Assembly: GCA_018970895.1 (NCBI GenBank)
Contig: JAGWVM010000001.1
Coordinates: 2,289 to 66,288 of the forward strand
Length of the DNA stretch: 64,000 bases
Origin: Lysobacteraceae bacterium
GTDB taxonomy: Bacteria > Pseudomonadota > Gammaproteobacteria > Xanthomonadales > Rhodanobacteraceae
Direction of reading: 5' to 3'
Part shown: positions 20,752-55,781 of the stretch, piece after piece
How the letters are laid out: every line of letters starts with the position of its first letter
Numbering within the stretch: position 1 is the first letter of the stretch
The notes under the pieces: generated by a model
The model's database searches: none
The model's input: only the letters and a program-made list of their open reading frames with translations
What the model was told of the DNA's origin: nothing
Program-made: the position numbers and the translations under genes

Positions 20752-21801
20752 ATGCCTCTCGCAATGGACAAGCCACTGCTCGCCTCGGACATCATGGAGG
20801 CGCGCGAACTGAAGGATGGAAAGATATTCCTGCTCAAAGGCAGGGACGGAAGCAGCCTGGTGCTGAAGGCGGAACCGAATGTCACGGGGGACAAGATCAA
20901 GGCGACTGCGCCGGTGCTCAAGGCCATCGACCCCACCATCAAGATGAAGCCGCTCACCCAGCCGGAGGTGCTGCAGCTCAAGCAGTTCCTGAAGTCCTGG
21001 AAGATGTACGTCGACTTCGTCAAATTCGTCAGCGGGACCGATACCCATCTTCCGATTTCGGCGGATGAAAAGAAGAGCATGGAAGAGCTCGAGGCCTGCG
21101 TTAACCAGTACGGCACCGGCGGTGCAAGTGGTCGCTCGGACATTGCGAAGATGAGTTACACGCAAATGTCGACATTGAGCGTGGCGCTGAAAGTGGAGAA
21201 CAAGCCCAGCAATGACGCCTCGTGGGACGAAGCGCGCTCCGTATTTGCCCAGTTCGTGAAGGCCCTGAACAAGTCGGGCGGACTGGAGAAGCTGGGGCAG
21301 ATCGTTGCCGGCGACTTTTTCATCGGAAACGAGGATCGCTTCGTGTCCAGCGGCAATGGCGTGCGGGTCGATCTTTACGGCGAAAAGCACCGACTGAAGG
21401 TGATCCTGAACCTGGGCAACGTGATCATCGTCAAGGACGCGAAGGGCAAGTCGCGTCCCTCGATGCTCGACTACATGGATCCGAACACCGACTTCCTCAA
21501 TCTGAATCAGACGCTGTCCACGATGGGGCGTGCGCAGGAATGGCCCATGCGCGTGTTGCTGGACCGGACAACGCGCCACGCGTTCGCCGAAAAGCTCGTG
21601 GACGATCTCGAGTACCTCCTCAAGCCCGAGAAAAGCCTGTTCGGTTTCAACAAACTGGGCGGGTCCCGTGCGTCGAACCGCGTCAACGACGGCATCAAGG
21701 CGGGCATCAAGGCCATGATCAAGACCCTTGGCGCGCGTCAGGCGAAACTCTCGCCGCTGATCCAGTCCTACTATGCCGAACTGGTCAGGGCGAAGGTGTG
21801 A
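20752..21801 (+). CDS. Atypical kinase-fold protein (PI3/4K, actin-fragmin kinase, HopBF1-like), candidate T6SS effector
   Basis: LVLKAE, LGQIVAGDFFIGNEDRF, NLGNVII, MLDYMD; no signal peptide or TM; lower GC than flanks. Confidence 0.72.
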   Translation: MPLAMDKPLLASDIMEARELKDGKIFLLKGRDGSSLVLKAEPNVTGDKIKATAPVLKAIDPTIKMKPLTQPEVLQLKQFLKSWKMYVDFVKFVSGTDTHLPISADEKKSMEELEACVNQYGTGGASGRSDIAKMSYTQMSTLSVALKVENKPSNDASWDEARSVFAQFVKALNKSGGLEKLGQIVAGDFFIGNEDRFVSSGNGVRVDLYGEKHRLKVILNLGNVIIVKDAKGKSRPSMLDYMDPNTDFLNLNQTLSTMGRAQEWPMRVLLDRTTRHAFAEKLVDDLEYLLKPEKSLFGFNKLGGSRASNRVNDGIKAGIKAMIKTLGARQAKLSPLIQSYYAELVRAKV

Positions 21802-22029: not shown

Positions 22030-22056
22030 TGACCAGATTCGCCGCGTTTTTTCGCA
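22030..22056 (+). promoter_or_regulatory. Candidate ECF promoter upstream of PAAR operon
   Basis: TGACCAGATT-N12-TCGCA. Confidence 0.65.
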
Positions 22057-22193: not shown

Positions 22194-22484
22194 ATGCCTC
22201 AACCCGCGGCCCGAGTGAGCGACCTGCACGTCTGCCCGATGGTCACGGGGGTGGTGCCGCACGTTGGTGGTCCGGTCAGTCCGCCCGGCAAGCCGACCGT
22301 GCTTATCGGTGGCCTGCCGGCTGCGCGGATGGGTGACATGGCGATCTGCGTCGGTCCACCGGACACCATCGTGATGGGGGCCCCCACCGTGCTGATCGGT
22401 GGCCAGCCCGCGGCACGGATGGGTGACAGCTGCTCCCACGGCGGCACCATCGTGCTCGGCTGCTTCACCGTGCTTGTCGGCTGA
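22194..22484 (+). CDS. PAAR domain spike-tip protein
   Basis: Three PAAR motifs (PAARVSD, PAARMGD x2), Cys/His metal ligands, 96 aa. Confidence 0.95.
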   Translation: MPQPAARVSDLHVCPMVTGVVPHVGGPVSPPGKPTVLIGGLPAARMGDMAICVGPPDTIVMGAPTVLIGGQPAARMGDSCSHGGTIVLGCFTVLVG

Positions 22485-22494
22485 GGGGGACTGG

Positions 22495-23898
22495 ATGCGC
22501 TCTGCTACCCGTTCGATGCCATCCCGTCGCCGTCCTGAGCTGCCACCGGCCGGCGGGGCCGTTGCCGCCACGCTCGAGGACGCCATGCGCGCCCATCAGG
22601 CAGACGACCTCGATGCGGCCGAGCGGTTGTATGGCGAGGTGCTGGCCTTGCATGCCGCGCAGCCGGACGCGCTGCATTTCCTGGGCGTGCTTGCGCACCA
22701 GCGCGGCCGCAGTGACGAGGCCGTGCTGCTGATCAGCTCGGCGCTGAAGATCATTCCCCGTCATCCCGACGCCCTCAACAACCTGGGCAACGTGCACAAG
22801 GAGTGCGGCCGGATCGCCGACGCCGAGCGCTGCTACCGCAAGGCACTGGCGTGCGCACCCCAGCATTACCAGGCCCAGAGCAACCTGGCGGTGGTGTTGG
22901 AGGCGCAGGAGCGGCTGGACGAGGCGTTCGAGGCCTACTCCAGGCTGATCGCGCAGGCACCGACCTATGCCCACGGCTATTGCCGCATGGGCCTGTTCCT
23001 GCGCAACTACGCCCAGGGCGAGGAGCACCTGCGGCAGTCGGCGGAATGCTCTCGCGAGGCCTACCGCCACGATCCGGCCAATGTGCGTGCCCTGGAAGGG
23101 GTGGGCGTGGCCCTGTACATGCTCGGTCGCCACGACGAGGCGGCGGACATCTATCGGCAGTGGCTGGAGCGTGAGCCCGCCAACCCTGTACCGCGGCACA
23201 TGCTGGCCGCGTGCGGCGCGGCCGAGGCACCCCCGCGGGCCGCGGACGATTACGTGCGTGACGTGTTCGACGGCTTTGCCGAGAGTTTCGACGAGCAGCT
23301 GATCCAGAACCTCGGCTATCGGGCGCCGGAAGTGCTGGTGGGCGCGCTCGACGGGGTGGTTCCGGCCGTGGGCCGTGCCCTGGACGTGCTCGATGCCGGT
23401 TGCGGTACCGGCCTGTGCGCCCCGCTGCTGCGTGAGCGGGCTCGCCGGCTGGTGGGTGTCGACCTGTCCGGCGGCATGGTGGAAAAGGCCCGCGCACGGG
23501 GCGGTTACGACGCGCTGGAAGTCGCCGAGCTGACCGCCTGGCTGCAGGCGCGACCGCAGTCGTTCGACCTGATCGTCTCGGCCGACACGCTGGTCTATTT
23601 CGGTGAGCTGGAGCCGGTGCTCGCCGCGTCGTCGTCGTGCCTGCGGCCCGGTGGCTGGCTCGCCTTCACGCTGGAGGCGGTGCAGGATCGCGAGGAGGTG
23701 GCCGAGCTCACGTCCAGTGGCCGCTACCGGCACTCGCTGTCCTACGTGGAGCGCGTGTTGCGGGCAACCGGTTTCACCGATGTCCGCATCGCCGCGGACA
23801 GCCTGCGCAAGGAGGCGGGGCAACCGGTGGCAAGCTGGGTCGTGCTGGCGCGGCGTGCCGCGCCCGGTGGTGCGGTGATGCCCGGGGCGGAGGGCTGA
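22495..23898 (+). CDS. TPR-repeat protein with C-terminal class I SAM-dependent methyltransferase
   Basis: TPRs (ALHFLGVLAHQRG, ALNNLGNVHKECG), YVRDVFDGFAESFD, VLDAGCGTGL, GVDLS..M, DLIVSADTLVYFG. Confidence 0.88.
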   Translation: MRSATRSMPSRRRPELPPAGGAVAATLEDAMRAHQADDLDAAERLYGEVLALHAAQPDALHFLGVLAHQRGRSDEAVLLISSALKIIPRHPDALNNLGNVHKECGRIADAERCYRKALACAPQHYQAQSNLAVVLEAQERLDEAFEAYSRLIAQAPTYAHGYCRMGLFLRNYAQGEEHLRQSAECSREAYRHDPANVRALEGVGVALYMLGRHDEAADIYRQWLEREPANPVPRHMLAACGAAEAPPRAADDYVRDVFDGFAESFDEQLIQNLGYRAPEVLVGALDGVVPAVGRALDVLDAGCGTGLCAPLLRERARRLVGVDLSGGMVEKARARGGYDALEVAELTAWLQARPQSFDLIVSADTLVYFGELEPVLAASSSCLRPGGWLAFTLEAVQDREEVAELTSSGRYRHSLSYVERVLRATGFTDVRIAADSLRKEAGQPVASWVVLARRAAPGGAVMPGAEG

Positions 23899-23934
23899 GC
23901 GATGCCGATCCGGTCCTTCGCCCACGCGGCACGC

Positions 23935-24429
23935 CTATGGACAGTTGCCCCCGTTCAACGCGTTGTCCGCATCGCAGCGCAGGCTCTTGCCGAGCGGTGC
24001 CAGGCGGCCCTGGATCGGCCCGCTGCAGAGGACGTCGTGCTCGGTGCCGTCCGGGGCGGTGACGCGGACCCCGGCCGAGCGCTTGCCTTCGTCGGTGTAG
24101 TCGAACACGGCGTAGTCGTAGCCGCGACGGCTGAAGGTGACCTCGGTGCGGTCGCTCTGGAACCGGAAGTAGTGGGCGTAGCGCAGCTGCCTGACGCCAT
24201 CGCCGGGACTCGACGGGTACAGCAGTTCCACGTGCGGTGCCTTGCCGTAGCGGTACTGCAGGCTGCCGGGCAGCGAGCCGCACAGGCTGATCGTCTTGTG
24301 GCGTGCCGTGCTGCAACTGAAGTAGGTGGTTTCGGGCGGCCTGCACTGGCCTCCCGCAGCGGCGGGTGCTCCGTGCGCGAGCGGCAGCGACGACGCGAGT
24401 GCGAGCGTGATGCTGGCGGAAAGGCTCAT
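23935..24429 (-). CDS. Secreted hypothetical protein, candidate periplasmic immunity/lysozyme inhibitor
   Basis: Signal peptide MSLSASITLALASSLPLAHG, six Cys, 164 aa; 31 bp downstream of the muramidase on the same strand. Confidence 0.7.
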   Translation of the reverse strand: MSLSASITLALASSLPLAHGAPAAAGGQCRPPETTYFSCSTARHKTISLCGSLPGSLQYRYGKAPHVELLYPSSPGDGVRQLRYAHYFRFQSDRTEVTFSRRGYDYAVFDYTDEGKRSAGVRVTAPDGTEHDVLCSGPIQGRLAPLGKSLRCDADNALNGGNCP

Positions 24430-24460
24430 GGTCGGAAGTCCTTGTGCAGCGGGCATCGTG

Positions 24461-25237
24461 TCAATGCGTGGCGCTCAGTCGACGGTAGGCGCGCTCGAGC
24501 TTGCCATCGTAGTCGTTGTCCCGATAGCCGACGCCGTTATAGCGACTTGCGAACGACGACCAGCGCCTGTTCCTCAGTGCGTCGAGCATGGCCTCGTCGG
24601 ATTTCACGAAACGGGCGAATGCCTCGAGGTGATTGGCTTCGGATCGGCTGAGCGCAAGCACGAACCACTGGACCGACGGGAAACCCGCTGCATGAAAGTT
24701 CTTGCCCATGATCTGGAAACGCCCCCACGACGCCGACTGCAGGGCGGCGGTCGGGGCGAGGCGATACGCCTTTTCGAGCTTCGGGTACTGCGAGGAAAAC
24801 GTGCCGTAGCCACCGCGCAGCGCATTGGAAATGTCGGGGTGGGTGTGGTCGAAACGGCCCTGGGTCAGGCGATGGAAGTAGCGCCGCTCGAACAGGATGC
24901 GCGGCCTCCCTTCGTTGTCGAAGGCCTTGCCGGACGTTTCCACTTCGGCCACCGCCCGGATGACCGCAACGTCCACGCCGAGCGCCATGGCCGCCCGCGC
25001 GTAGCTCTGCGGGCCCAGACCCTGTTTCGGGGCGAGGCACATGCGGAACAGGAATGAGACATCCGGCTCGGCGGTGGCCGGCAGCGGCACGGCGTGCAGG
25101 CATTGGGCAGGTCCCGTCCAGGCTTGCGAGCGCATCGCGCGCGGAGCGCGGCACATCGGAGCGGACGCCGCATGGCTCGCGTCGAGCGGGAGCGCCATGC
25201 CCGTGAACACCGGAAGAGCGGAGCATACGTTGGACAT
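24461..25237 (-). CDS. N-acetylmuramidase family (DUF3380/PF11860-like) peptidoglycan hydrolase; start uncertain (25237 or 25042)
   Basis: AVAEVETSG, GRPRILFE, SASWGRFQIMG, W..FA.RYNG.GY..N.YD.KL motifs; track ORF 24461..27364 is an antisense over-extension. Confidence 0.88.
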   Translation of the reverse strand: MSNVCSALPVFTGMALPLDASHAASAPMCRAPRAMRSQAWTGPAQCLHAVPLPATAEPDVSFLFRMCLAPKQGLGPQSYARAAMALGVDVAVIRAVAEVETSGKAFDNEGRPRILFERRYFHRLTQGRFDHTHPDISNALRGGYGTFSSQYPKLEKAYRLAPTAALQSASWGRFQIMGKNFHAAGFPSVQWFVLALSRSEANHLEAFARFVKSDEAMLDALRNRRWSSFASRYNGVGYRDNDYDGKLERAYRRLSATH

Positions 25238-25453
25238 GCTGGATTCCCTGCATTGCCGGCCACGGCCGGGAACATCGCGGCGGTCACTCCGGACCGGCCG
25301 GCACCCGGCGCGCCGTCGCCTGCCCGGTCGGCGAAGTGTACGCGCCGCCGAGCAGCGGAGCATGCGGCCAGCCGGCTTGCGCGCCGGTCGTGCGCCAGCC
25401 ATTGCTGCAACGCCCCGGGTGGCGGCTGCCGCGTGGACCCGGAGACCGGCCCG

Positions 25454-27481
25454 ATGAGCGCACAGATCACGATCAGCTCCGACAAGGCCGAGGACCTGCT
25501 GTTTGTCGGCATGACCACCGAAGATCGGCTCGGGCGGATGTATGCGTACTGGGTGCAGTTCGAGAGTCGCGATGCCGGGATCGACCTGACCGCGCTGCTC
25601 GGCTCGTCGATGACCGTCACGATCGACACGCAGGACGGCTACGAGCGGCATTTCAACGGCATCGCCTGCGAGGCGGCGCAGACCGGCGTGGAGACCGTCG
25701 AAGGGCTGATCTATGCGCAGTACAGCGTGTGCCTGGTGCCCAAGCCGTGGCTGCTCGGAAGCATGGTGGACTGCCGCATCTTCACCGACATGACGGTGCC
25801 GGACATCGCCAAGGCGGTGTTGCAGGACGCCGGCTACAGCGACGTCAAGCTCAGCCTCAGCGCCAACTACGAGAAGCGCGAATACTGCGTGCAGTACCGG
25901 GAGGACGGCCTGAACTTCATCAGCCGACTGATGGAGCAGGAGGGCATCTACTACTTCTTCTCCCACGATGCGAGCACCCACACCATGGTGCTGGCCGACG
26001 GCGTGCGGTCGCACGCCGTGGCCAGCGAGTTCGGCCAGGTGGCCTACGCAGCCGGAACCGACAGCGTGCTGCGCCGGCAGGCGACCGTCAGCGCCTGGAG
26101 CTGCGCGCGCGGGGTGGACGTCACCAGGTGCCAGCTCACCGACTACAACCCGCTGACGCCGAAAGCCTCGCTGCTTGCCACCGGTTCGGACGGTGGACAC
26201 GGCTCGACCGGCAGCATCAGCGTGTTCGACTATCCCGGCGGCCACGCCACCGCGGCGCTGGGCCAGCACTACGCCCAGGTGCGGGCCGAAGCGCTTGGCG
26301 CGGCGCGCTCGCACTACAGCGGCCAGACCGGCGCCTGCGGCATCGAGATCGGCGGCCTGTTCACGCTGAGCGACTATCCGCGCAGCGCGCTCAACCAGGA
26401 GTACCTGGTCACGGCGACCTCCATGCAGCTGCACGGAGCCGCCCGCGCATCCGGCCGCGGCAACGACGAGCCGTCGTTTTCCTGCAGCTTCGAGGCGATC
26501 GAGAGTCGCCAGCCCTTTCGCAGCCTGCCCACGGCAACCCGGCCCGTGGTTCCCGGCCTGCAGACCGCGGTGGTCTGTGGCAGCGACACCGACGAGGACA
26601 TCGCGGTCGACAAGTACGGTCGCGTGCAGGTGACCTTCCCCTGGAACAAGCCGGACAAGCCCAACGCCAAGAGCTCCTGTCCGGTGCGCGTGGCCTCGCC
26701 GTGGGCCGGCAAGACCTGGGGCGCGGTGAGCATCCCGCGCGTCGGCCAGGAAGTGGTGGTGAGTTTCCTCGAGGGCGACCCGGACCGCCCGCTGATCATC
26801 GGCAGCGTCTACAACGCCGACAACATGCCGCCGTACGCGCTGCCGGACAACAAGACCCAGTCCGGGGTGAAGACGCGCAGCCTGCTCGGCGGCGCCGATG
26901 ACGCCAACGAACTTCGCTTCGAGGACAAGAAGGGTTCCGAGCAGCTCTTCATCCATGCGCAGAAGGACATGCTGGAGGAGGTCGAGAACGACCACACCGT
27001 CACCATCGACCACGACGAGAAAGTGACGGTCAAGAACGACCAGACGCTGGAGGTCGGCAACGACCAGACCGAGACGGTCAAGCACGACCGCAAGGTCACC
27101 GTGCAGAACGGCGACTCCCTCGACGTCACCGCCAACGGCACGACCAGCATCGGACAGAAGTTCAAGCTCAGTGCGGGCACCGAGATCGAGCTGGTCACCG
27201 GCGCGTCCAGCATCACCATGAAGAGCGACGGCACCATCGAGATCAAGGGCGTCAACATCAAGATCAGTGGCGACGTCGGGGTGAAGATCGAGGGCCAGGT
27301 CGAGGTCGGCATCAAGGCCGGCGCCACCATGGACATCGGCGCCGGCGCCAGCCTGAAGGCGCACTCGGACGCGATGCTGGAAGTGGCCGGCAGCGCTATG
27401 ACCACGGTCAAGGGCGCGATGACCACCATCAAGGGCGACGCGATGACCCAGGTCTCCGGCGCCATCATCATGATCGGCTGA
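25454..27481 (+). CDS. vgrG: T6SS spike protein VgrG, no toxin extension
   Basis: YCVQYREDGLNFISRLMEQEGIYYFF, DKYGRVQVTFPW, IPRVGQEVVVSFLEGDPDRP, gp5-like C-terminal repeats; 675 aa. Confidence 0.97.
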   Translation: MSAQITISSDKAEDLLFVGMTTEDRLGRMYAYWVQFESRDAGIDLTALLGSSMTVTIDTQDGYERHFNGIACEAAQTGVETVEGLIYAQYSVCLVPKPWLLGSMVDCRIFTDMTVPDIAKAVLQDAGYSDVKLSLSANYEKREYCVQYREDGLNFISRLMEQEGIYYFFSHDASTHTMVLADGVRSHAVASEFGQVAYAAGTDSVLRRQATVSAWSCARGVDVTRCQLTDYNPLTPKASLLATGSDGGHGSTGSISVFDYPGGHATAALGQHYAQVRAEALGAARSHYSGQTGACGIEIGGLFTLSDYPRSALNQEYLVTATSMQLHGAARASGRGNDEPSFSCSFEAIESRQPFRSLPTATRPVVPGLQTAVVCGSDTDEDIAVDKYGRVQVTFPWNKPDKPNAKSSCPVRVASPWAGKTWGAVSIPRVGQEVVVSFLEGDPDRPLIIGSVYNADNMPPYALPDNKTQSGVKTRSLLGGADDANELRFEDKKGSEQLFIHAQKDMLEEVENDHTVTIDHDEKVTVKNDQTLEVGNDQTETVKHDRKVTVQNGDSLDVTANGTTSIGQKFKLSAGTEIELVTGASSITMKSDGTIEIKGVNIKISGDVGVKIEGQVEVGIKAGATMDIGAGASLKAHSDAMLEVAGSAMTTVKGAMTTIKGDAMTQVSGAIIMIG

Positions 27482-27492
27482 CGGAGGCGCAC

Positions 27493-28032
27493 ATGTCCGC
27501 AGTCATTCACGCCTCGGTCCAGATGGAGCTTCCGGCGGAAGCCCATGCGGTGTTGCGCGCGGAGATGACGCCGCAGGCCGCGGTGCAGGCCCTGCTCGGG
27601 GCCGGACGCTCGCAGGACGCGCTCAAGCTGCTCGCCCGGCTGTTGCCCAAGCGTTACGCGGTGGCCTGGGTCTGCCAGTGCGCCCGCGAACAACCGCTGA
27701 CCCAGGAGGACCGCGCCGGTGCCTCGCTGGCCGAGCAGTGGGTGCGCGAACCGAGCGAGAGCAACCGCCGCGCCGCGTTCGAGTTCGCCCATGCCGGTGG
27801 CTACAAGTCGCTGGGCGCGTGGATCGCCGCCTCGGCCGGCTGGTCCGGCGGCAGCCTGGCGCCGGCCGCACAGGAGACGCCGGTGCCGCCGCCGGACCAC
27901 CTCACCGCGCGCGCCACGGTGGCGGCGATCAACCTGCTGGCAGCGCTGGAACCGGCCGAATTCGACGCCCGCCGCGCAGCCTTCATGGAGCGTGCGGCCA
28001 GCCTGCTGCAGGCCGGGGGAGGGGAGGCATGA
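27493..28032 (+). CDS. VgrG-adjacent conserved helical protein (DUF6931-like)
   Basis: LARLLPKRYAVAWVCQC, AEQWVREPSESNRRAA, AAS.GWSGGSLAP; family name from recollection. Confidence 0.7.
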   Translation: MSAVIHASVQMELPAEAHAVLRAEMTPQAAVQALLGAGRSQDALKLLARLLPKRYAVAWVCQCAREQPLTQEDRAGASLAEQWVREPSESNRRAAFEFAHAGGYKSLGAWIAASAGWSGGSLAPAAQETPVPPPDHLTARATVAAINLLAALEPAEFDARRAAFMERAASLLQAGGGEA

Positions 28033-55754: not shown

Positions 55755-55781
55755 TGCGCAAAAGCCGGCGGGATCCGGTCA
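55755..55781 (-). promoter_or_regulatory. Candidate ECF promoter upstream of tssA
   Basis: Minus strand TGACCGGATC-N12-GCGCA; its TGA doubles as the FUSC stop codon. Confidence 0.6.

Follow-up and report, generated by a model that had tools for sequence, protein, structure and literature searches.

Kinases of the actin-fragmin kinase (AFK) type form a small, eukaryote-centred family described from slime moulds, ciliates and non-animal holozoans, and its characterised members act on actin and tubulin. Here we describe a bacterial gene, located at positions 20752 to 21801 of a 64,000-nucleotide (nt) stretch of Lysobacteraceae DNA (the whole of which we call the window), whose product is predicted to adopt a fold nearest to that of AFK and which lies in the variable part of a type VI secretion system (T6SS) cluster, between clpV and a PAAR gene.

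Among kinases, an Arg directly after the catalytic Asp is found in AFK and phosphoinositide 3-kinase (PI3K) alone, and an insertion separating that Asp from the Mg-binding Asn is unique to AFK (Scheeff and Bourne, PMC1261164); in typical kinases four residues lie between the two (D166 to N171 in protein kinase A numbering; PMC1261164). The tubulin-kinase domain of PHS1 is an AFK-like atypical kinase that phosphorylates tubulin (PMC8783414); it is described from plants and green algae. Reviewed T6SS cargo consists mostly of toxins (for example lipases, nucleases, pore-formers and peptidoglycan hydrolases), and a 2026 review of T6SS accessory factors features only Hanks-type and histidine kinases. 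Francisella OpiA is a PI3K-like lipid-kinase T6SS effector that acts against the eukaryotic cell and has no immunity protein (Ledvina et al. 2018, as cited in PMC13577199). The group-3 T6SS of Xanthomonas citri, regulated by PknS/EcfK, defends this bacterium against Dictyostelium and plays no part in competition with bacteria or fungi.

Predicted fold of the kinase

The final AlphaFold model of the kinase, built on a 150-sequence alignment (predicted local distance difference test (pLDDT) 95.3, predicted template modelling score (pTM) 0.92), was compared with 48,161 PDB representatives using VIA-align. AFK (1cja_B) is the best match, with a Z score of 16.1 and a root mean square deviation of 3.3 Å, 255/327 residues being aligned over a span of residues 5-351 at 13-14% identity. 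The next rows are CtkA (8.2), Vps34 (7.7), HipA (7.7), MavQ (7.6), PI4KIIIbeta (7.4) and PI4KIIalpha (7.1), so that HipA, HipT and CtkA stand among the next-best matches at Z 7-8, and kinase folds occupy all 50 of the 50 best rows. With Foldseek against the whole PDB, 1cja_A is the sole match at E ≤ 0.001 (E 7.8e-5, probability 1.0, template modelling (TM) scores 0.48/0.51). An earlier reading of this DNA from its sequence, the first-pass annotation, had proposed an atypical kinase fold on the AFK or PI3/4K-like branch and had suggested comparing an AlphaFold model with AFK by Foldseek; AFK proves to be the nearest solved structure by a wide margin, with the catalytic set intact, and 1cja is the top match in that very comparison, so the objection that no kinase fold would be predicted falls away.

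A first model, based on 22 sequences (pLDDT 74.5) and superseded by the 150-sequence model, already had 1cja at the top with VIA-align (Z 12.0 vs 5.3 for the runner-up). Foldseek placed it closest to a Dictyostelium putative AFK among the Swiss-Prot models, with Physarum AFK second and Arabidopsis PHS1 also listed, and returned weak kinase rows only from the PDB. When the ESM Atlas was searched by shape with the first model, generic kinase folds alone came up (TM about 0.3), and a feature search of the same resource ranked a cluster of PF09192, the AFK family of Pfam, second at 0.94. SelO and SidJ are among the weak structural matches.

Similarity to AFK is faint in the sequences themselves. 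The family profile matched AFK as the only kinase among PDB sequences, on the catalytic loop; PDB sequence searches with the single sequence and with a 22-sequence profile yielded nothing useful. A Pfam and NCBIfam scan of the kinase brought no family to threshold, and among 64 family members sub-threshold PF09192 matches were found in 40 (best E 1.3e-4), any other family being matched in at most two. A six-frame PF09192 search of 401 genomes of the phylum, the window's own included, produced no match anywhere, control genomes included, so it is uninformative. No sequence bridge to the eukaryotic AFKs was found with the 150-sequence profile in a word-indexed protein database, which returned the known family only.

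Other kinase families fit less well. There is no match to PF00454 (the PI3K/PI4K family), and Vps34, PI4KIIIbeta and PI4KIIalpha score Z 7.0-7.7 vs 16.1 for AFK. A Hanks-type T6SS regulatory kinase (PpkA/TagE, PknS) was likewise rejected: the protein has no Pkinase (PF00069) match, and the two Hanks-type kinases of the cluster are separate genes. HopBF1, a type III secretion system effector, is an atypical kinase that targets HSP90; it is minimal, at about 200 aa, and is not known to have the AFK insertion. The kinship to it suggested in the first-pass annotation was not borne out, as HopBF1 is outside the 50 best rows of both PDB structure searches and the family profile gave no match to it in PDB sequences, although a weaker likeness is possible.

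Proposed active-site residues

The features of the gene and of its catalytic set are as follows.

20752 to 21801, + strand: AFK-like kinase gene (open reading frame (ORF) and translation, codon periodicity, homologues, model)
20741 to 20746, + strand: Shine-Dalgarno-like AGGTGA, 5 nt 5' of ATG 20752, read from the sequence
20866 to 20868, + strand: K42, strand-3 lysine in L-V-L-K-A-E, putative ATP phosphate contact (model strand 38-43; at least 90% conserved)
20965 to 20967, + strand: E75, start of the long helix 73-97 of the model, candidate partner of K42 (at least 90% conserved)
21313 to 21339, + strand: D191-F-F-I-G-N196-E-D198-R199, end of helix E and catalytic loop (D191, D198 and R199 invariant, N196 at least 90%)
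21340 to 21408, + strand: hairpin insertion, residues 200-222 (strands 208-211 and 214-217 of the model), after the catalytic Asp and before the putative Mg-binding Asn
21409 to 21420, + strand: N223-L-G-N226; N226 ends a short 3-10 helix (224-226) and is the putative Mg-binding Asn (N226 invariant, N223 at least 90%)
21466 to 21483, + strand: L242-D243-Y-M-D-P after strand 8, with L242-D243 at 21466 to 21471; D243 is the putative metal-binding Asp, equivalent to that of DFG (D243 invariant)

Conservation was counted in an alignment of 150 family members with a mean column identity of 17%. D191, D198, R199, N226, D243 and G317 are invariant, and K42, E75, K136, N196 and N223 are conserved in at least 90% of the members. 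The motif set is more than chance, because five of its residues are invariant across 150 members at so low a mean identity. From conservation and fold, D198 would be the catalytic Asp and R199 the Arg typical of AFK and PI3K. The catalytic loop aligns to the 1cja stretch L-D-V-I-V-N-N-S-D-R and to PF09192 positions 149-171. D198 and N226 lie 27 residues apart, with the hairpin at 208-217 of the model between them; strands 228-231 and 237-240 precede D243, and L-D-Y-M-D-P is invariant in the close clade. The D-x4-N-x-D-R, N-x-GN and LD motifs are all found where the first-pass annotation had placed them. Its strand-3 lysine in VLK is also present (K42, 20866), with the qualification that VLK occurs twice and that the lysine of the other copy (K60, 20920) is kept only in the close clade.

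Judged from the aligned sequences, this pattern of conservation is apparently that of an active phosphotransferase and not of a pseudokinase. On the basis of the predicted model, we assign the protein to the AFK structural family, as a distant bacterial member that fails the Pfam sequence threshold, because it combines the Arg after the catalytic Asp and an AFK-type insertion with 1cja as the nearest fold.

The gene and its composition

The reading frame is open from 20743 to 21801 on the + strand, with an in-frame GTG at 20743 as an alternative start. ATG 20752 is the likely start in view of the homologues, since every one of them begins M-P/T/S-L at the matching Met, and it gives a 349-aa product of 38.6 kDa with an isoelectric point (pI) of 9.4 and 10.3% Lys. 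The N-terminus is polar, with no hydrophobic stretch, and leads directly into strand 1, in agreement with the signal peptide having been noted as missing in the first-pass annotation.

Codon-position GC (0.57/0.37/0.82) is coding-like for a window of about 70% GC. The gene as a whole has 58.7% GC, as against 69.6% across the window and 68% in the T6SS core, which makes the earlier estimate of about 55% against about 70% roughly right. Much of the dip stems from the Lys-rich nature of the encoded protein (10.3% K, pI 9.4). The GC content at third codon positions (GC3) of the kinase gene is below that of the neighbouring clpV in 6/6 clusters compared (0.82 vs 0.94 in the window, 0.45 vs 0.81 in L005).

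Position of the gene in related clusters and extent of the family

In all near relatives with informative context the kinase gene lies between clpV and a PAAR gene, a TPR-methyltransferase gene or vgrG, in the same type of T6SS. Eleven distinct loci at 46-93% identity, together with one at 32% (L034), all have it in this clpV-PAAR/vgrG slot (12/12). Identities to the kinase are 93% in L007, 88% in L001/L008, 85% in L010, 81% in L009, 60% in L015, 59% in L002-L004, 58% in L011, 57% in L014, 52% in L012 and L013, and 46% in L005/L006. The metagenome-assembled genomes (MAGs) that carry the slot-linked loci are labelled as Gamma-, Beta- and Alphaproteobacteria.

Two genomes of the same genus (G249 and G326) have an orthologous cluster, with ClpV 97% and 91% identical and with the PAAR, TPR-methyltransferase and VgrG genes, and no kinase. 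In G326 (L029, 1432-3975) the clpV-PAAR slot is filled instead by a protein of the Endonuclea_NS_2 family and an OTT_1508-like deaminase, separated by small ORFs; this is classic polymorphic-toxin cargo. Other genes found in the slot of kinase loci encode a DUF6795 protein, an M35 protease, a Tse2-like ADP-ribosyltransferase with a Tsi2-like gene, and a lipase. In L002-L004 (11080-12558, - strand) a gene of 463-492 aa that matches the VipA and VipB Pfam families, a TssB-TssC-like fusion, is located between the kinase and vgrG.

A search of the word-indexed protein database found 31 relatives at 39-93% identity, mostly metagenomic and none with an assigned name, and among 1.84 billion cluster representatives a full hidden Markov model (HMM) search picked out 259 proteins at E ≤ 0.001, nearly all of them 320-360 aa long. 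The close clade is monophyletic (support 1.0). The family is rare: it occurs in 4/401 genomes sampled from the order, its own genome included and the other three being distant orphan copies, and in 1/401 genomes of the phylum, the window's own genome being included in the count.

The kinase gene looks like mobile cargo and not like a fixed part of the machine, because the slot is swapped in genomes of the same genus, the family is rare and patchy, and GC3 is lower than in clpV. Both its position between clpV and PAAR/vgrG and the variable content of the slot in same-genus genomes agree with the first-pass placement of the gene in a T6SS cargo region.

No neighbour on either side of the kinase is conserved in the loci compared in the manner of an immunity gene, and the 393-nt gap between kinase and PAAR in the window holds no coding-like or conserved small ORF. 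In several loci the gap from kinase to clpV is 30-150 nt or that from kinase to PAAR 80-90 nt. The earlier observation that no immunity-like gene adjoins the kinase thus holds, the 393-nt gap being empty and the kinase abutting clpV or PAAR directly elsewhere.

Three members differ in size or surroundings. P0114 (L038, 8001-10166) is a 721-aa protein whose kinase domain is C-terminal, preceded by about 500 residues without a Pfam family, and it adjoins a DUF6603 protein and very large ORFs. P0181, a distant member (L044, 1054-2079; 25% identity; on 22 contigs), lies in a housekeeping neighbourhood, between radC and coaBC-dut. P0038, also distant (L041, 663-3244, and L040, 3685-5315; 29% identity), shares 60 nt with the beginning of a gene for a Hanks-type Ser/Thr kinase, which suggests a two-kinase module in that lineage.

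The T6SS cluster of the window

The window holds a complete T6SS. Its genes run in the order membrane Hanks-type kinase, extracytoplasmic function (ECF) sigma factor, tssB, tssC, hcp, tagJ, tssE, tssF, tssG and clpV, followed by a 5.8-kb non-core stretch and then by vgrG, DUF6931, fha, tssK, tssL, tssM, tagF, pppA and ppkA. Phospho-signalling is represented in the cluster by a PP2C phosphatase, an FHA protein and two kinases of the Hanks type. The non-core stretch comprises an ORF at 19635-20714, the kinase, the PAAR and the TPR-methyltransferase genes and, on the opposite strand, a muramidase-like gene and its signal-peptide partner. The features around the kinase are these.

9579 to 9605, + strand: bipartite promoter-like motif before tssB, the nearest copy upstream of the kinase on the same strand
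16892 to 19630, + strand: clpV (tssH), upstream boundary of the cargo slot (translation; conserved upstream neighbour in related loci)
19635 to 20714, + strand: cargo-slot ORF without a Pfam family (coding signal leaves the frame near 20400-20490)
22030 to 22056, + strand: bipartite motif before PAAR, at the start of the next unit (partly conserved in L007)
22194 to 22484, + strand: stand-alone PAAR spike-tip protein (translation; PAAR follows the kinase in L007, L010, L012, L013 and L034)
22495 to 23898, + strand: TPR and S-adenosylmethionine (SAM)-methyltransferase protein, between PAAR and vgrG (Pfam; kept in G249, G326, L005, L010, L011, L012, L013 and L034)
25454 to 27481, + strand: vgrG, downstream boundary of the cargo region (Pfam Phage_GPD, Phage_base_V and Gp5_trimer_C)

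Four copies of the 27-nt bipartite motif (TGACC...N12...CGCA) are present in the window vs 0.03 expected, at 9579, 22030 and 42184 on the + strand and at 55781 on the - strand, each one ahead of an operon of the T6SS/TPS locus. The kinase has no copy of its own; the + strand carries every gene between 9838 and 21801, the kinase being the last of them. It probably closes the tssB-clpV transcription unit and would be cotranscribed with it, because the nearest motif precedes tssB, the next precedes PAAR and all the genes between share one strand.

The coding signal of the ORF at 19635-20714 is good as far as about 20400, after which the GC3 signal shifts to another frame while the ORF stays open to 20714; it may be frameshifted cargo. 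It has no counterpart beside the kinase in the other loci compared, and its position in L007 and L010 is taken by a different, faintly similar ORF of 237 aa. The module of PAAR, TPR and SAM-methyltransferase and VgrG (22194-28032 in the window) is kept in L005, L010, L012, L013, L034, G249 (L028) and G326 (L029), hence with or without the kinase, and DUF6931 comes next wherever the locus extends far enough. We know of no described role for a methyltransferase between PAAR and VgrG. On the - strand, a muramidase-like gene (23935-24456, PF11860-type by eye) is followed by one for a signal-peptide, Cys-rich protein (24461 to about 25060), before vgrG. These two look like an antibacterial effector-immunity pair, and they are missing from the same-genus clusters compared.

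Proposed function of the kinase

The sequence data establish the gene, the conservation of its catalytic residues, its synteny and the fold predicted for its product, and from these we infer activity, co-transcription, loading, secretion and target. We lean towards the view that the kinase is a T6SS-delivered effector, probably aimed at eukaryotic grazers, and it is probably an undescribed injected kinase. Its gene would be accessory cargo of a group-3-like T6SS. To judge from conservation and fold, ATP-Mg would be held between the lobes by K42 (in strand 3, touching the ATP phosphates) and by N226 and D243 (binding Mg); D198 would act as the catalytic base, and R199, with the AFK-type hairpin after it, would brace the crossing loops as in AFK and PI3K. 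The position of the gene and the size of the protein suggest that it is probably loaded on the VgrG-PAAR spike, rather than in the Hcp tube, because 38.6 kDa is judged too large for the latter. It would then be fired into a neighbouring cell and phosphorylate a target missing from the producer. Since no immunity gene goes with the kinase in any locus, that target would most likely be eukaryotic: speculatively, a protein of the cytoskeleton of a grazing amoeba, in view of the action of AFK on actin and of PHS1 on tubulin, or else, as another speculation, a phosphoinositide, as for OpiA. The idea of a eukaryotic target leans on the missing immunity gene, on the AFK and PHS1 precedents and on the likeness of the cluster to the anti-Dictyostelium T6SS of X. 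citri. In its most specific form, a bacterial AFK mimic fired into grazing amoebae that phosphorylates actin or, for example, tubulin and so blocks phagocytosis, the proposal is doubtful.

Several observations weigh against delivery to a eukaryotic cell, or against the AFK assignment behind it. The fold evidence rests on a predicted model, and the PF09192 match of the kinase is below threshold (11.4 bits vs a cut-off of 24, E 0.21) and covers residues 180-202 only. Pfam detects no delivery marker or fusion (MIX, DUF4123, DUF1795, DUF2169, PAAR, VgrG or Rhs) in the kinase or in 64 members, and no delivery or other domain in the longer members of the family (up to 721 aa); nor is any adaptor gene conserved beside the kinase in the loci compared. 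Linkage of the homologues to secretion loci, on which the first-pass annotation had made its proposal depend, holds for the near relatives (12/12 loci) and gives way beyond them: members at 25-30% identity are mostly found in ordinary chromosomal contexts, outside secretion loci, next to glycosyltransferase and protease genes, to TonB receptor, NamZ or urate-catabolism genes, or to radC and coaBC-dut. The whole family may thus be one of cytoplasmic bacterial kinases of which one clade was recruited to the T6SS, or else the clade linked to the T6SS may work within the producer cell. Antibacterial cargo is also found in this slot and cluster (the muramidase with its secreted partner, and nuclease or deaminase toxins in relatives), because of which the type of cluster does not fix the kingdom of the target. 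Beyond fold and synteny, then, our claims are inference, and the wider family has members that are unlinked to secretion.

The kinase could instead stay in the producer as an optional, Tag-like factor that phosphorylates T6SS parts or regulators alongside PpkA/PppA/Fha or PknS/EcfK. In favour of this, the gene keeps its place directly after clpV from cluster to cluster, phospho-signalling genes are already plentiful in the cluster (the Hanks-type kinases, the PP2C phosphatase and the FHA protein), the distant member P0038 is translationally coupled to a Hanks-type kinase, the housekeeping contexts of distant members suggest cytoplasmic roles, and no delivery marker was found. Set against this, the kinase is missing from the closest clusters (ClpV 97% and 91% identical), which retain every other part; it occupies a slot that elsewhere holds toxins, its GC3 is consistently below that of the machine genes, and no such factor appears in the 2026 review of T6SS accessory factors. 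We regard a role inside the producer as unlikely. The evidence for a cargo slot would apply equally to an antibacterial, HipA-like kinase toxin with an essential bacterial target, against which the producer would be protected by something other than an adjacent immunity gene, and both the antibacterial cargo of slot and cluster and the presence of HipA, HipT and CtkA among the next-best structural matches (Z 7-8) would suit such a toxin. However, the Hip kinases match far less well than AFK (Z 7.7 vs 16.1), no neighbour is conserved, and in several loci the gaps to clpV (30-150 nt) and to PAAR (80-90 nt) leave no space for one; an antibacterial function appears improbable.

The kinase might also be a cytoplasmic small-molecule, lipid or other housekeeping kinase captured in the variable region, or an enzyme of the same fold with a non-kinase chemistry such as AMPylation. 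The metabolic neighbourhoods of distant members point this way; the substrate cannot be read from the fold, and kinase folds with other reactions are known, SelO and SidJ being among the weak matches here. Chance capture can hardly explain, however, why 12/12 informative near-relative loci, with alpha-, beta- and gammaproteobacterial MAG labels, have the gene in the same slot, and the residues of canonical phosphotransfer are all retained, so we consider this origin improbable. The reading that we favour remains delivery by the T6SS, probably into a eukaryotic grazer.

Comparison with known systems

In the literature searched, AFK and type VI secretion are not brought together in any paper, and OpiA is the only kinase-fold T6SS effector that was found. 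If the proposal of an AFK mimic fired into amoebae is true, this would be the first AFK-type kinase shown in bacteria and the first protein-kinase effector of a canonical T6SS, and the anti-predation T6SS group would gain an effector class. An AFK-like enzyme as swappable cargo of an anti-Dictyostelium-type T6SS would, if confirmed, extend the AFK fold to bacteria and be a testable candidate for how such systems disarm protist predators.

HopBF1 is likewise a bacterial atypical kinase, and is injected, as the present kinase would be. OpiA is the functional precedent for the proposed mechanism, being a kinase of the PI3/4K-like wing carried as T6SS cargo, and the pairing of such a kinase with a T6SS is hence not as uncharacterised as the first-pass annotation had supposed. 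It differs in being a PI3K-family lipid kinase of the Francisella T6SS, whereas the present kinase has no PF00454 match and belongs to a canonical proteobacterial cluster.

The cluster itself matches in gene set the group-3 T6SS of X. citri and its Dyella relatives, with which it shares TagJ, Fha, PppA, PpkA and TagF and a membrane Ser/Thr kinase gene directly before an ECF sigma-factor gene at its head. A variable region is found in that group, and effectors are not described in the published accounts of it that were consulted. The kinase is not a general part of group-3 T6SSs, the other 400 genomes sampled from the order being without the family save for the three distant orphan copies.

PHS1 of Arabidopsis is a structural match weaker than AFK (E 0.08, TM 0.39) and a second case of an AFK-like fold that acts on a cytoskeletal protein; unlike the kinase described here, it is a eukaryotic regulator, fused to a mitogen-activated protein kinase (MAPK)-phosphatase-like domain. 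AFK of Physarum polycephalum (PDB 1cja, PF09192), with the putative AFKs of Dictyostelium, is the best structural match of all (Z 16.1 vs 8.2 for the next). The two differ in that identity is 13-14%, the PF09192 score is below threshold, and the present kinase has a bacterial host and is encoded in a T6SS cluster; it is also a single domain of 349 aa, whereas Physarum AFK has 737 aa and matched the model over its residues 69-341. Like AFK, it has the D-x4-N-x-D-R loop, the Arg after the catalytic Asp, the insertion between that Asp and the Asn, the strand-3 Lys and the metal-binding Asp.

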